From IMG/VR virus record IMGVR_UViG_3300042275_000518, positions 1-64,000 of that record: 64,000 nt of DNA, one strand, 5' to 3'. Shown in pieces: positions 2,686 to 10,323 of this stretch. Below the pieces are notes generated by a model that saw nothing but the letters and a program-made list of their open reading frames with translations, was not told the origin of the DNA and ran no database searches. A program made the position numbers and the translations under genes. Each line of letters begins with the position of its first letter. Position 1 is the first letter of the stretch. The stretch is from a virus. Lineage: Duplodnaviria; Caudoviricetes.

Positions 2686-3602
2686 TAAAAGATAAACCTT
2701 ATGGTTTATCTTTTTTACTTTTATTTTTATAACAAATATTTATATAATAACTGACCGGAGGAATCTTTATGAAAAAATATTATCTTTATAAACATATTAA
2801 TAAAATAAATGGTAAAATATATATTGGTATTACATCTCAAAAGCCGGAAAAAAGATGGGGAACTAATGGCATAAATTATAGAAATAATAAATATTTTTGA
2901 AATGCTATACAAAAATATGGTTGAGATAATTTTGATCATATAATATTAAACGAATCTGATAGCAAACTAGATATTGAAGGAATGGAAGAAAAACTTATAG
3001 CTCAATTCAAAAGTTCTAATAAAAAATATGGATATAATATATCTTTGGGCGGTACATTGAATCAACATTCTAATAGAACTAAAAAATTAATTTCAGAAAA
3101 GCAAATTGGAAGAAAACTTTCAAAAGATCACAAAAATAATATATCTAATGCTATCAAAGGTAGTCATAAAAATTTAAAAGATAAATTAGGAAGACCAGTA
3201 GAATGTGTAAATGTAGAAACATTAGAAATTATAAAATTTAATTCAATTAGTGAGGCCATTGAAAGGCTAAATCTTCCAAGAGCTGGTATATCTGGAAGCT
3301 GTACAGGTAGGTATACTCATGTGAAAAAATACATCTTTAAATATTCAGATGATAACACAAGAAATTTACTAGAAGAGATTGATAATTTTCAAATAACTAA
3401 CAGTAAAAAGATTACTGGAACTCATATTAAAACAGGTGCCATATTAGAATTTAGATCATCAGAAGAAGCTGCTAGGTATCTTAATAAAAAACATGGCGGA
3501 TCTAAGATAAGAGATTGTATCGCTGGAAGAGGAAAATCTGCATATGGTTATACATGAAAACATAATTTAAATAAAAGATAAACCTTATGGTTTATCTTTT
3601 TT
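2686..3602. repeat. 31-bp direct repeat (bidirectional intrinsic terminator) flanking the GIY-YIG gene
   Basis: TAAAAGATAAACCTTATGGTTTATCTTTTTT at both 2686-2716 and 3572-3602. Confidence 0.9.
2769..3581 (+). CDS. GIY-YIG homing endonuclease with NUMOD3/NUMOD1 DNA-binding repeats; 270 aa if TGA=Trp
   Basis: GGAGG RBS then ATG at 2769; MKKYYLYKHINKINGKIYIGIT..RW..YF[TGA]NAIQKYG[TGA]DNF..GYNISLGG..KSAYGYT[TGA]KH..TAA. The ORF track shows only 2982-3557. Confidence 0.85.
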
Positions 3603-3609
3603 TATTGTC

Positions 3610-5970
3610 TTAATATGCTGCGTATGGATCCACTTCTTCAGCAGACGGCTCTTTGATTTTGTCTTCAACACCTTCCATATCAATATCTTCTTTGATCTCA
3701 TCAAATTTTTCCCAATCAATACCAGGAAGTAATTCTTTGACAACTGCAGCTTTCATCTTCAGACGTTTAGGCTCATTAGAACCAGTTTGATCCATTGGAT
3801 AATATTGTGCTGAAATAAATTCTGCATTTTGATCTGCGATTTGTATTTGATCTGTAAGATTGCTCATGTTTAATGTTGCTGGACTTGGGAAAGTTACTTT
3901 AATATCATCAATGCTAACGTAGTTCAGTACTTCTGATTCTTTGTCATTGTCATATTTATACTCATTTTGATATAGTTTTCTATACATTTTTGTAAACGGT
4001 TGAGTAAATTTCTTTTGATATTTAATAACATTACGAACAAAGTTAGCATTTTGTGCTGACAGAGTTCTTGCAAAGTCGATTTCTTTAGTCGCATCAATTA
4101 AAGTTCTAGGCACACCAATACCTGATAACATTGAATCTTTTAGGAATTCAATAAAGTCATTGTTCATATCAATATCCATACCAGCTAAGGTATCGATTTC
4201 AATTGGCCTTTCGCCATTAATTGAAGGAATATAATAGTCATCAAAACGGCCAGGTGTAAGGTTTAGAATTGTATTGATTTCACCAAGCATATCCATCTTG
4301 AATTCTTTAGTTTTAATATCTTGAATAACTCTTGATATTGCTTGTTCATAATCAGCATCAGCACCAACGTCTACATAGAATACACGTTTATCATGTGCAC
4401 GACCCATTTTGATTAGAAGCATGTTTGTAAGTGTTGCAAGATATAATTTAGCAAAGAAAATAATCTTTCTGTATAACGCAGGGACTTTGAAAGCAATGAT
4501 TTCTTCAGGTGAGAAGAATGTCATCTTAATTTCTTTCTTAAGAATATAGTCCTGTTTAACTAGATTGAAGATAAAATCTTTGAATTCTTTGTTATGTCTT
4601 ACGAAATCTTTATCGATTTTCTTAGAAAGAACATCAAGGAAAATCTTAGAAATAAGGTTAACTTTTGCATCTGACAATCCTTGTGTTGATAAAGAATTTG
4701 AGCTTGGAGTGTATTTTGAGTTATTAGTTGTAATAAGGTTTGACCCCATATTTACGGGGTTTAGAACTTCACGACCTGTACTAGCACCAAGATATCCCGC
4801 ATTTGGGATATTTCCTAGATTAACATCTTCAAATACATAATAACCATATACAACGTTATCTATCTTTAATTCTACAACTCTTGTTGGGTCTAAGATTTTG
4901 ATAGATGAGCCATTTAGGAACATAGGTTTGTTGTCATCAGCTTGTTTATTTTTATTTCTCTCAGCTTTAAGTTTAGGAATATCAGTTGTTCCTCTTAGGT
5001 CTTCTAATTTCTTTTTACTTTGTTCTGCTGAGACTCTTTCTAACAGCATTTCTTTTTTATTACCGATGTGAATACGTTTGTTAACTAGTTCACTAACTAA
5101 TTCTTTAACAGAATCTTCCATGAAGATTTCATGTTCTTTGAAGTTAGCATCTTGCGCTAATTCTGTAAAGGTTTCACAAATCACTTTGCCGTAATCTTTT
5201 TCGAATTCCACATCTTCTTTAATGATAGGGATATTGATTGAGTCTAATGCAAAATATCCGAGAGTCTCCTCGTTTAGAGGTCTCCCGCTATTATTGACTA
5301 TTGGGTCATTAAGCATAACATCCAATTCATCTTCTAAAGAAAGAAGAGCCACATATTGGTCTCCATATACAAGAGCTTCACCAATAATCTCATCTGCTAA
5401 ATCCTCTATTTCGTATTTTTCAGTAAGGTCATCAAGTTGTTTCTCTATAAGTTCTTTTGTCTCTTCTTCTAACTCATTATCATATTCAATATTGAATATC
5501 ATCTTAGTGAAATCATCTGGACTCATAATGTTATCTTTATATGTGTCCAATGCTTGTGCAGCTTCTGGAATATGTGTATAGATTGCCTTATAGTTATTAT
5601 AAGAAATAATACGTCCAGACTCTGAAGTAATCATGGCGCTAATTGCACCATAATCTAACTCTGACATATACTGTTTGAAAGCCTGTTTTGGATTTTTATT
5701 AAACTTATCTTGTTGATTTTTGTCCATCTTGTCTTTCTTAAATTCGGCAAATGCAGAGGCAAAGTTGATTTCATTAAAGTAGTCAACCACTTTTCCGTTA
5801 GCTCTATCGCCATACTTCTCGGATGTAGCCACCATAGTTTGTTTAATAATGTCTTTAAGGCTGTCAGATTCTATTCCTAGCTCCTGACCCATCCCATAGA
5901 CGGAGAGGGTACTCTTTTTCTCAAGGTCTGCTAATTGTTTCTTTTGTTGCTCAGTTTTTCTATCTGCCAC
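3610..5970 (-). CDS. Portal protein
   Basis: RAHDKRVFYVDVG and DDYYIP..GERPIEIDTLAG resemble T4 gp20 RAPERRVFYIDVG / EDYWLP..GTEITTLPG; size typical of jumbo-phage portals. Confidence 0.85.
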   Translation of the reverse strand: MADRKTEQQKKQLADLEKKSTLSVYGMGQELGIESDSLKDIIKQTMVATSEKYGDRANGKVVDYFNEINFASAFAEFKKDKMDKNQQDKFNKNPKQAFKQYMSELDYGAISAMITSESGRIISYNNYKAIYTHIPEAAQALDTYKDNIMSPDDFTKMIFNIEYDNELEEETKELIEKQLDDLTEKYEIEDLADEIIGEALVYGDQYVALLSLEDELDVMLNDPIVNNSGRPLNEETLGYFALDSINIPIIKEDVEFEKDYGKVICETFTELAQDANFKEHEIFMEDSVKELVSELVNKRIHIGNKKEMLLERVSAEQSKKKLEDLRGTTDIPKLKAERNKNKQADDNKPMFLNGSSIKILDPTRVVELKIDNVVYGYYVFEDVNLGNIPNAGYLGASTGREVLNPVNMGSNLITTNNSKYTPSSNSLSTQGLSDAKVNLISKIFLDVLSKKIDKDFVRHNKEFKDFIFNLVKQDYILKKEIKMTFFSPEEIIAFKVPALYRKIIFFAKLYLATLTNMLLIKMGRAHDKRVFYVDVGADADYEQAISRVIQDIKTKEFKMDMLGEINTILNLTPGRFDDYYIPSINGERPIEIDTLAGMDIDMNNDFIEFLKDSMLSGIGVPRTLIDATKEIDFARTLSAQNANFVRNVIKYQKKFTQPFTKMYRKLYQNEYKYDNDKESEVLNYVSIDDIKVTFPSPATLNMSNLTDQIQIADQNAEFISAQYYPMDQTGSNEPKRLKMKAAVVKELLPGIDWEKFDEIKEDIDMEGVEDKIKEPSAEEVDPYAAY

Positions 5971-8613: not shown

Positions 8614-8625
8614 ATTGCCACCTCC

Positions 8626-10323
8626 TTATAGATATTTACCATTTATTTTTATATAGTTCCATAACCCTAATACTTCTGTTCTTGTATCGTCATATAAGTT
8701 TAGCATTGTGATGTATCTTGTTTTTATTTGATTCGGATTCCCAGATGATGTGTCAATATCAGCAAAGTCAAACATTATAGAATAGTAGAAATTTATTTCT
8801 TTGAAGTCCATATATGTTATATTAGTGTTGTCTGTGAATTCTTCGTATAATTTTTGTGCCTTATATAAAAGAAAGTCTTCTATATTTGGTATCATAACAG
8901 ATTCATTCGAGTAGTCAAAAGGTTCGGTTGATATAATTTCGTAATATTCAACAATCTCTTCTGCCATTGCTTTTATATATCTCTTAACTTCTAAGAGAGA
9001 GAATTTGTTATAAGTATTTTTTAATAATGAAGCCATCAATAAATCTAAATCCTTGTCGTTAAAGAATAGATTTTTATTCAAGTCTTTCTTTAAAAATACT
9101 GGTAAGCCATTAGTATTGTTATAATTTTTAAGAGTCAGTATTTTTTTAAGCGTACTAACTTGACGATTAGCTGTTATCGAAAAAGTTCCAGTATAATTAC
9201 TGATTATATTCCAATAATCTTTTTCTGCCTGAATCTTATTTCTATAAGCTGTTATATCAAAATAATCAATATATGGCTTGAATAAGAATTTTTCACTTGC
9301 CGTAAATAACTCATCTTCTAAATTAGTTGCTCTATAAAAGATAGAATCATCTTGGTCTAATGATTGTCAGTCTATATAATCGTATAGATTTCCATAAACT
9401 TCATATATTCCTTCTTTTAGCCTTTTATTCATTATTTCAACTTTATTACTCTTGACTTCGGAAAGATATTTTACAATACTTTCATAATTTACATCTAATT
9501 CATTATTATCTAAAAACATGAAATAATCTTCTATTGTAAAGATTTCCCTATCTATATTTGTAAAGAACATAAAGAATATCTGGAAAGCATCAGTTGAATT
9601 AACTTTTGCTAGTGTATTAAATAGTTTATAATATCTACTATTTTCATCCTCAATTTCTTCTTTATATAGTTCCATTAATTCATCTACAATTATCTGTAAT
9701 GACGAATAATTTGTCATATAGATATTAGCAGGTCTGCGTGTGAGCACCCTTGGTTTTCCTGGCTTTTTAAGTGGAATAAATATTCCCTCATCTGGGTTCA
9801 TTGAAGCAAATCCTATAATTTTATCGCCTAGAAAATCAAATTTTGTAGCTGTAATATCTGTGTTAGGTCCTGTTACAACAGTCCCTATTGTGTCATTTAT
9901 AGTATCATTTCTTACTACAGCTCCGCCACCAGTAAAACTATCTGTTACCATTGATTGCTGACCAGTATTTGTTGGCGGGAGTGTATTAATTATAGAGGTA
10001 ATAGGAATAACTGTAAGAACAGGTGTCATAGATTCTTCAATGATAGTCCTTGGATTCTCTGAATAAATAATATTTTCCATATGAGCACTCACTATTTTCT
10101 TGTTGCTAAGAATAGTTTTAACCTGTGTATTCTTAACTTCACTTCTTATAGTTTCTTGGACTATTACTGGTTCTTCATTCACTACAACTGGAGATAAAGT
10201 ATCTTCAACTGCAACTTCTACAATGCTCTTTTCTGATTTTATTGAAGGTTTTGAAAGCCTTCCAATAGGTCTAACAGGTGAAGTAATTGGCGCTCCTAAT
10301 ATATCACGTCTCATACTACTCAC
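8626..10323 (-). CDS. Hypothetical virion-region protein, 565 aa, one in-frame TGA at 9367-9369
   Basis: Track ORFs 9367-10323 and 8626-9081 are in the same frame, joined by 95 stop-free codons (YID[TGA]QSLDQDD...LKKDLNKNLFF). Confidence 0.8.

Follow-up and report, generated by a model that had tools for sequence, protein, structure and literature searches.

The present data support a model in which TGA is read as tryptophan in an uncultured jumbo phage of the AR9/PBS1 type, and they show that the codon has two uses in this phage, as sense codon and as stop. The window analysed, a stretch of 64,000 nt, is the first third of the phage contig (IMG/VR; 74% complete). The explanation that best accounts for the sequence, and that is probably correct as a whole, is that the phage supplies a tRNA-Trp(UCA) of its own, which decodes UGA as Trp in a limited number of late and mobile genes. 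Because such a tRNA would decode UGA as Trp, the five in-frame TGAs in 2769-10323 would be sense codons, all five being present where the original prediction had placed them (2898, 2922, 3555, 7852, and 9367). As part of the same explanation, the GIY-YIG endonuclease carrying the first three would be one protein of 270 aa, and two pairs of minus-strand open reading frames (ORFs) would each encode one protein, of 610 aa and about 565 aa, respectively. Judged by alignment with homologues, Trp is the residue found at most of the testable TGA sites.

Interrupted genes in the window

The features on which this model draws are as follows.

2677..2730, plus strand: left copy of a 54-nt direct repeat with a terminator-like hairpin, bordering the endonuclease cassette
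2731..2742, plus strand: AR9-type late promoter motif AACA-N6-TA, a sequence match that precedes the GIY-YIG start codon by 38 nt
2769..3581, plus strand: free-standing GIY-YIG/NUMOD homing endonuclease gene of 270 codons (Pfam GIY-YIG, NUMOD1, and I-HmuI NUMOD-like)
3563..3616, plus strand: right copy of the repeat and hairpin, 83% identical to the left copy and 886 bp from it
6781..8613, minus strand: one gene of 610 codons within the virion-gene block, function unknown, with fused homologues and one sense TGA
8626..10323, minus strand: single gene of unknown function, about 562-565 codons, with homologues and one sense TGA at 9367-9369

The endonuclease frame contains sense TGAs at 2898-2900, 2922-2924, and 3555-3557 (W44, W52, and W263) and a single TGG. 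With TGA read as W, its product exceeds the Pfam cut-offs for PF01541, PF07453, and PF22083, and thus combines an N-terminal GIY-YIG domain with NUMOD modules. It had been proposed that KYGWDNF and GYxWK are Trp motifs at the TGAs of this gene; in alignment with crAss-phage GIY endonucleases, W52 and W263 indeed fall in invariant Trp columns (KYGWDNF and GY[KT]W), and W44 falls at an aromatic column that is Y/F in the homologues.

On the minus strand, TGA 7852-7854 (codon 254) links the ORFs 7852-8613 and 6781-7710 into a 610-codon frame, which has full-length homologues that are single proteins (580-673 aa; 31-54% identity and 90-99% coverage by BLASTP). The site lies in a variable, gapped stretch of the homologue alignment, so that neither Trp nor any other residue can be assigned to it from homologues. 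TGA 9367-9369 links the ORFs 9367-10323 and 8626-9081 into a 565-codon frame, for which a homologue of 589 aa (74% identity, 99% coverage) has three other in-frame TGAs of its own. A more distant copy of this gene, in the relative L002, has TGAs at two invariant-W columns, and both L002 and the relative L001 have in-frame TGAs elsewhere in the same gene block. No family was found in Pfam or PHROGs for the 610-aa or the 565-aa protein, nor was any match found among 50,697 phage records for the 610-aa protein (tblastn) or for positions 2700-10400 (megablast).

The two minus-strand TGAs are followed by 47 and 95 codons, respectively, that contain neither a stop nor ATG, GTG, or TTG. Open joins of this length had been predicted to be improbable by chance, and they are: with stop-to-stop runs in the non-coding frames of the genome's own genes as baseline, runs of at least 47 codons make up 2.1%, and runs of at least 95 codons 0.19%, of the off-frame total. 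The codon-usage score of the joined frame is positive on both sides of each TGA. Base-calling error, in which case reads would show TGG, is excluded because six independent metagenome contigs, five from JGI samples and one from a Logan run, agree on the 9367 TGA and the 7852 split is repeated in L003, the single independent contig that extends to that site, where a sequence 100% identical over 6,948 bp likewise encodes 253 + 309 aa.

The original prediction was to fail where homologues align residues other than Trp. This is the case at one site, 9367, where all relatives have Arg or Lys; Trp is aligned at W52, W263, and W361 of the terminase. Since 9367 arose from CGA (Arg), from which it is one C-to-T change away in a relative of 90-94% identity, not every TGA site is an ancestral Trp. 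By itself this TGA could be a tolerated nonsense mutation, and it seems that the suppressor tRNA let the Arg-to-stop mutation become fixed.

TGA as sense codon and as stop across the genome

About 35 sense TGAs are spread over about ten genes. The genes concerned are the two homing endonucleases (GIY-YIG and HNH), the terminase, two virion-region genes, three LamG tail fibres, and the tail spike, and no sense TGA falls outside this set; all interruptions in these genes are TGA, with no TAA, TAG, or frameshift among them. In the terminase, which lies just upstream of the window, W361 corresponds to an invariant Trp in three jumbo-phage terminases and W338 to Trp in two of three homologues. The tail fibres hold 22 sites, 11 of them alignable by blastp, where six match the TGG Trp of a paralogue and a seventh pairs with the paralogue's own TGA. 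The tail-fibre paralogues are 25-35% identical, a divergence too high for every TGA site to be judged.

About 11 genes use TGA as their first in-frame stop, several of them with ATGA stop/start overlaps. In these genes a TAA or TAG usually follows within a few codons, or the next gene's start directly after, and late read-through would therefore add only a short tail. Of the proposal that the phage uses code 4, the reading of TGA as Trp holds, but plain genome-wide use does not: genome-wide code 4 implies that TGA is never a stop and is the favoured Trp codon, whereas here TGA ends these genes and TGG is dominant. The dominance of TGG had itself been anticipated, and genome-wide counts bear it out (424 TGG versus about 35 sense TGAs).

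A comparison of coding density under the alternative codes, which the original prediction had recommended, gave a divided answer. By our own simple gene finder, reading TGA as sense instead of stop raises coding density genome-wide just 1.9 points, from 85.4% to 87.3%, but gives large local gains, from 91.8 to 97.4% at 1-12 kb and from 85.3 to 97.9% at 170-190 kb; a control in which TAG was read as sense brought no gain. A 10% rise in coding density has been used as a rule for detecting an alternative code (PMC13037316). The rise found here falls short of that rule, which is a criterion of detection rather than a biological one. Because the recoding is sparse and adds only 1.9 points, density-based code callers would miss this phage.

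A candidate decoder and competing explanations

It had been suggested that a tRNA-Trp(UCA), a release factor, or a tryptophanyl-tRNA synthetase (TrpRS) might be encoded in the rest of the genome; a tRNA of this type was found on an overlapping contig, whereas the protein factors were not detected in the 74%-complete contig, neither release factors (PF00472: RF1, RF2) nor TrpRS/TyrRS (PF00579). Searches of the deposited contig with ARAGORN (several settings) and with the Rfam tRNA model returned no tRNA with anticodon UCA. One is present at 3876-3950 of contig L015 (ARAGORN; 60 bits on the Rfam tRNA model), which comes from another assembly, overlaps the genome's last 3,599 bp at 100% identity, and is the sole link of this tRNA to the phage; the gene would thus lie 387 nt beyond the deposited contig end. 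Its body is of the Trp type (A1-U72, G73, no long variable arm). It matches 58 phage records, and among the best 25 of the 58 all 19 that are annotated are tRNA-Trp. The AR9-type late motif AACA-N6-TA stands 8 nt before its 5' end. It did not arise by recent duplication of the tRNA-Trp(CCA) gene that the phage also carries, as the two are only about 68% identical (51/75 columns).

Other candidate decoders were rejected. A Sec-shaped tRNA (a match to the tRNA-Sec model) at genome positions 99153-99237, beside tRNA-Trp(CCA), has the anticodon UGA, reads the Ser codon UCA, and is therefore not a UGA reader. In two other weak matches, one a broken copy resembling tRNA-Phe and the other tRNA-like but carrying an 89-nt insert, UCA could not be placed as anticodon. 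A Hirsh-type tRNA-Trp(CCA) with U11-A24 was set aside after the UCA tRNA was discovered.

Alternatively, the host itself may use code 4 (Mollicutes-like, lacking RF2), in which case TGA would always be Trp, no switch would exist, and TGA would have drifted from TGG under AT pressure. The genome's G+C content of 31%, its U34-type tRNAs, and the variable, often non-conserved TGA positions among relatives are in keeping with such a host, as is a phage tmRNA tag ending in AFA, which resembles Mollicutes tags. This scenario is nevertheless unlikely, as about 11 genes have their first stop at TGA, several with the ATGA overlaps typical of TGA termination, TGG outnumbers TGA about 12 to 1 despite the low G+C content, the hosts of the cultured relatives (Bacillus, Staphylococcus, Listeria, and Yersinia) all use the standard code, and a phage UCA tRNA behind a late-type motif would be needless in a code-4 host. 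It is slightly less likely again that 7852 and 9367 are nonsense mutations or programmed stops, with products of 253 and 315 aa as the main forms, self-starting downstream ORFs, and full-length protein arising only by minor read-through, as does the A1 protein of Q-beta. Suppression in competition with RF2 is seldom complete, 9367 derives from CGA (Arg), and 7852 sits in a variable stretch, all of which would suit short products. However, all relatives encode one continuous protein, no start codon occurs in the 47 and 95 codons after the TGAs although these stretches are coding-like and conserved, the 9367 TGA is fixed in six samples, and a dedicated UCA tRNA exists.

A different residue at TGA (Gly as in code 25, Cys, or selenocysteine), or pseudogenes and assembly errors, would be the least expected outcome and is very improbable. 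The tRNA-Sec model match in the tRNA cluster could be cited in its favour, as could the frequent decay of homing endonuclease genes. Yet the Sec-like tRNA has anticodon UGA, not UCA, TGA sites fall in invariant Trp columns, the body of the UCA tRNA is of the Trp type, the interruptions are TGA only, and six assemblies agree on 9367; on these grounds the code 25, selenocysteine, sequencing-error, and pseudogene readings were rejected. Decoding of UGA as Trp by the phage tRNA thus remains the preferred model.

Lineage, promoter classes, and a possible timed switch

Kinship with AR9/phiKZ-type phages, as originally proposed, is backed by several markers. The terminase is 41% identical to that of Takahashivirus BpSp (vB_BpuM-BpSp), the sheath protein is closest to those of phiR1-37 and of Staphylococcus and Bacillus jumbo phages, and an RNA polymerase (RNAP) beta-like gene matches PF00562 at 121743-123032; PF00623 was not detected in a profile search of the phage contig. 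The phage shares its terminase, sheath, RNAP beta-like gene, and promoter motifs with AR9, PBS1, BpSp, and phiR1-37, but the kinship is distant (about 32-41% protein identity). The combination of multisubunit RNAP and early and late promoter motifs that marks the AR9/phiKZ type is represented by PF00562, by about 25 intergenic early-like motifs, and by an enriched late motif. The early motif, TATATATTATAA, is similar to the AR9 early motif AAATATATATTAT-N6-G, and the late motif was taken from the AR9 consensus AACA-N6-TA/G (PMC5312081). Genome-wide, 40 late motifs were seen 20-60 nt upstream of starts, about 9 being expected; a sigma-70 promoter scan did no better than shuffles. The late motif lies 21-38 nt upstream of four recoded genes (GIY-YIG, HNH, one of the three tail fibres, and the tail spike) and also upstream of four TGA-ended genes, so the temporal split is not clean. 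Two further features lie ahead of the minus-strand genes.

13093..13123, minus strand: strong terminator hairpin (14-bp stem and T run) between an early-type promoter at about 15386 and the TGA-bearing gene block
13058..13069, minus strand: AACA-N6-TA match directly behind the terminator and only 2 nt ahead of the ATG with which gene 10990-13056 begins, its assignment as a late promoter being uncertain because it is atypically near the ATG

The proposed mechanism holds that a late-type promoter motif, used by the non-virion RNA polymerase, drives the UCA tRNA gene. Early in infection UGA would mostly be a stop, and it would increasingly become Trp once late transcription supplies the tRNA. Synthesis of homing endonucleases, of tail fibres, and of part of the virion and packaging proteins would thereby be delayed until late. 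The timing of the UGA switch, the efficiency of suppression, and a standard-code host are points that we infer.

The Agate and Jade clades are TGA-to-Trp recoded phages of gut and animal microbiomes, and in the published general model of recoding the affected genes include those for tail proteins and homing endonucleases (Borges et al., bioRxiv 10.1101/2021.08.26.457843). The present phage shares with them in-frame TGAs at Trp positions, with what may be a bias towards structural and late genes, a phage UCA suppressor tRNA, preferential recoding of homing endonuclease and tail proteins, and standard-code genes elsewhere in the genome. It differs in belonging to an AR9/PBS1-like lineage that encodes multisubunit RNA polymerases and has defined motifs for early and late promoters, in its very sparse recoding (about 35 codons in about 10 genes), in the retention of TGA as a working stop in about 11 genes, and in that the 'code change module' (RF1 or TrpRS) was not found in its 74%-complete contig. 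As in NCBI genetic code 4 (Mycoplasma, Spiroplasma), UGA would be Trp by way of a tRNA-Trp with anticodon UCA, but the phage departs from that code in keeping TGA as a stop as well, in using TGG as its main Trp codon, and in that the gene for the decoder is viral. Laboratory opal suppressors made from tRNA-Trp (CCA to UCA) likewise have a Trp body and UCA anticodon and insert Trp at UGA in competition with RF2, whereas here the gene is natural, virus-encoded, and not a recent copy of the phage tRNA-Trp(CCA). A limited literature search found no report of stop-codon recoding in AR9 or its cultured relatives.

The phage is thus a clear, if sparse, addition to the known phages with stop-codon recoding. 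Code-11 gene calling splits the GIY-YIG gene and both minus-strand genes, as predicted for standard annotation; at least three genes in the window and about ten genome-wide are affected, the terminase, tail fibres, and both homing endonucleases among them. Similar cases of sparse recoding are probably under-counted because coding-density tests miss them. More tentatively, and with somewhat less than even confidence, the phage may represent an early, low-density stage of code change, in which a late-promoter tRNA-Trp(UCA) acts as a timed UGA switch in a phage with two RNA polymerases of its own. Homing endonucleases, receptor-binding fibres, and the terminase would stay blocked until the late phase, early and middle genes would still terminate at UGA, and the phage would tolerate and then fix fresh C-to-T nonsense mutations, the CGA-to-TGA change at 9367 being one example. 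With this phage, the range of late-gene TGA-to-Trp recoding comes to include an AR9-like jumbo phage whose promoter classes are known and make the proposed timing directly testable, and, as AR9-type promoters are well defined, the phage could serve as a tractable model for the onset and timing of a code switch.

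In-frame TGAs and the minus-strand genes

The window covers bases 1-64000 of one virus contig of 189,901 bp, an IMG/VR record with 31% G+C and a CheckV completeness of 74%. Five in-frame TGAs lie where the original prediction had placed them, at 2898, 2922 and 3555 on the plus strand (frame 2769-3581) and at 7852-7854 and 9367-9369 on the minus strand, the last two each linking a pair of ORFs, which gives one frame of 610 codons and one of 565, respectively. The 47 and 95 codons that follow TGAs 7852 and 9367 contain no stop and also no ATG, GTG or TTG; by comparison, runs of at least 47 and at least 95 codons between stops have frequencies of 2.1% and 0.19% in non-coding frames of the genes of the same genome. 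The codon-usage score is positive in the same frame on either side of both sites. The 315-aa product ending at 9367 is identical in six metagenome contigs (one each from five JGI samples and a Logan run), with GAC TGA CAA at the site in all six, and one of the six, L003, which is 100% identical to the window across 6,948 bp, likewise has the gene split at 7852 (253 + 309 aa). Because the TGAs are thus replicated across independent contigs, a sequencing artefact, one of the objections foreseen for this reading, is excluded, and the in-frame TGAs are real.

No Pfam or PHROG family was found for the product of either minus-strand gene. Each ORF pair nonetheless corresponds to a single gene in relatives, since full-length, one-protein metagenome relatives exist for the 610-codon gene (580, 602, 670 and 673 aa; 31-54% identity, 90-99% coverage) and for the 565-codon gene (589 aa; 74% identity, 99% coverage). 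Site 9367 is CGA in L001, a relative 90-94% identical, and Arg or Lys in two further relatives, so that TGA 9367 differs from an Arg codon by one C-to-T change. Variation and gaps in the protein at 7852 leave no residue assignable from homologues. On these alignments, two of the five sites do not fit a simple picture of ancestral Trp codons.

Tryptophan columns and the UCA tRNA

Further genes with sense TGAs, i.e., in-frame TGAs taken as Trp codons, lie within and beyond the window, one of them flanked by repeats:

2769-3581, plus strand: GIY-YIG/NUMOD homing endonuclease, 270 aa with TGA as Trp
2677-2730 and 3563-3616: two copies of a 54-nt repeat flanking the GIY-YIG gene, 83% identical, 886 bp apart
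7940-9949 of contig L016, minus strand, about 50-2060 nt upstream of window position 1: terminase large subunit, two sense TGAs
Genome 72846-73853: HNH homing endonuclease, three or four TGAs

The objection that homologues might carry residues other than Trp, which holds at 9367, fails at W52 (KYGWDNF) and W263 (GY[KT]W) of the GIY-YIG protein, encoded by TGAs 2922 and 3555, as both are invariant Trp columns in an alignment with crAss-phage GIY endonucleases; the column of W44 is Tyr/Phe. The terminase, reached through the JGI contig L016, which adds 9.9 kb of sequence before the first base of the window, is split under code 11 into calls of 213 and 287 aa. Its W361 is an invariant Trp in Bacillus phage BpSp, Pseudomonas phage OMKO1 and a Salmonella jumbo phage, and W338 is Trp in two of these three. 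In our alignment, both TGAs in the 9367-gene copy of L002, a more distant relative, likewise occupy invariant Trp columns. Three tail-fibre genes with LamG domains (171-185 kb) carry 3, 7 and 12 in-frame TGAs; 11 sites could be aligned by blastp, six lying opposite Trp encoded by TGG in a paralogue and one opposite a paralogue's own TGA.

The GIY-YIG gene is free-standing; its neighbours are a tail-tube-like virion gene (1867-2679) on one side and, on the other, a portal-like virion gene (3610-5970) whose convergent end faces it. Each flanking repeat copy contains the same 28-nt terminator-like hairpin, and the pair looks like a footprint of insertion of the endonuclease cassette. Near the repeats, one metagenome contig from this phage comes to an end.

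The deposited contig encodes 24 tRNAs and a tmRNA; its tRNA-Trp has the anticodon CCA, none of the 24 has UCA, and the release-factor and TrpRS genes looked for are absent from this 74%-complete contig. The tRNA-Trp(UCA) sought as decoder was found beyond the contig end. Look-up of the last complete gene led to the Logan contig L015, which overlaps the final 3,599 bp of the genome contig at 100% identity and extends 4,336 bp further, and on which ARAGORN calls a 75-nt tRNA with anticodon UCA, 387 nt past the deposited end. Against the Rfam tRNA model this tRNA scores 60 bits; it carries A1-U72 and G73 and lacks a long variable arm. It matched 58 phage records by blastn, and among the 25 matches listed all 19 named features are tRNA-Trp; identity to the phage's own tRNA-Trp(CCA) is about 68% (51/75 columns). 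An ORF of 121 codons containing three in-frame TGAs (L015 4076-4441, plus strand) is situated between the UCA tRNA gene and the last complete gene of the deposited contig, whose 3' end it crosses.

Other RNA genes of the contig, outside the window, were also noted. A tRNA-Sec model match adjoining tRNA-Trp was rejected as a UGA reader because its anticodon, UGA, reads the Ser codon UCA. This Sec-like 85-nt tRNA, at genome 99153-99237, minus strand (13153-13237 of genome piece L010), missed by ARAGORN, has an 8-bp acceptor stem, a 6-bp D stem with a 4-nt loop and a long variable arm, and its tRNA-Sec model score of 44.6 bits is slightly below the cut-off of 47; its architecture resembles published "allo-tRNA" shapes. 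Also on the minus strand are a tRNA-like RNA (genome 100551-100695) with normal acceptor, D and T arms, a CCA end and an 89-nt insert replacing the anticodon arm; a broken, 63-nt tRNA-Phe(GAA)-like copy (genome 100025-100087); the tmRNA gene, among the tRNA genes (genome 96376-96715; tag ANTQELAFA); and, near the tRNA cluster, a partial YrlA (Y-RNA-like) match with a tRNA-like module (genome 105043-105105; 44 bits, cut-off 69).

Kinship, promoter motifs and dual use of TGA

The proposed AR9/phiKZ-type kinship is borne out as that of a distant AR9/PBS1 relative: the terminase is 41% identical to that of Takahashivirus BpSp, the sheath is closest to those of phiR1-37 and of Staphylococcus, Listeria and Bacillus jumbo phages, and the genome has an RNAP beta-like gene. 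AR9 early promoters read AAATATATATTAT-N6-G and late promoters AACA-N6-TA/G (PMC5312081). The AR9-like early motif here, TATATATTATAA, has about 25 intergenic copies, almost all of them on the minus strand. Copies in the window, and a terminator downstream of one of them, are:

Near 15386, 19187, 20647, 28160, 32079, 36033, 42858 and 57749, minus strand: conserved early-type motif (A/T)TATATATTATAA, with a purine-rich start region after it
13123-13093, minus strand: strong terminator, between the nearest early-type promoter (about 15386) and the block with both minus-strand TGA genes

By sequence, (A/T)TATATATTATAA resembles the AR9 early (virion RNAP) promoter. AACA-N6-T[AG] occurs 40 times, against about 9 expected, 20-60 nt upstream of start codons, with no peak on the antisense strand. 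Four genes have it 21-38 nt upstream, namely those for the GIY-YIG enzyme (motif at 2731-2742), the HNH endonuclease, the tail spike and one tail fibre, and AACAAAAATTTA, which fits AACA-N6-TA, ends 8 nt 5' of the UCA tRNA. An AACA-N6-TA match after the 13123-13093 terminator is uncertain as a late promoter, because it stands just 2 nt before the ATG.

In a simple gene finder made for this analysis, about 35 sense TGAs, in about ten genes, stand against 424 TGGs, so TGG is the main Trp codon, as expected. The same finder gives TGA as first stop in about 11 genes, most with TAA or TAG 1-7 codons on or with an ATGA in which the stop overlaps the following gene's start. Code 4 therefore holds in that TGA is read as Trp, but not genome-wide. 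The late motif also precedes four TGA-terminated genes, and the early/late split is thus not clean. Taking TGA as sense raises the coding fraction only from 85.4% to 87.3% overall, but from 91.8% to 97.4% at 1-12 kb and from 85.3% to 97.9% at 170-190 kb; a TAG-as-sense control gave no gain. This genome would escape the 10% coding-density rule by which PMC13037316 calls alternative codes.

Mechanism and alternatives

Assignment of TGA to Trp is supported by the invariant-Trp alignments and the Trp-type UCA tRNA, with sites 9367 and 7852 and the dual use of TGA as caveats. These alignments and this tRNA, together with TGA-only interruptions and replicated sequence, led us to reject TGA as Gly, Cys or Sec, pseudogenes and error. 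A host that itself uses code 4 is unlikely, as TGA serves as stop, TGG is strongly dominant, the virus carries the UCA tRNA and cultured relatives have standard-code hosts. It might be that TGAs 7852 and 9367 give mostly truncated products with little read-through; against this stand the conserved coding sequence without starts downstream of both and the fixation of TGA 9367 in six samples.

Most likely, the phage works in a timed manner as in the published model, in which a phage tRNA recodes UGA in late genes (bioRxiv 10.1101/2021.08.26.457843). Early in infection, UGA would act as a terminator; late transcription would then supply tRNA-Trp(UCA), upon which translation could continue through UGA with Trp, completing the products of the recoded late genes. 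Late read-through of TGA-terminated genes would add a tail of only a few residues. We infer the timing of this switch. Genes with sense TGA here include homing endonucleases and tail genes, as they do in published recoded phages, whose TGA-preferring genes include a homing endonuclease and a tail protein (bioRxiv 10.1101/2021.08.26.457843). The data support this phage as a further case of the known TGA-to-Trp recoded class, notable for an AR9-like lineage, for very sparse recoding and for TGA that serves as both stop and sense codon.
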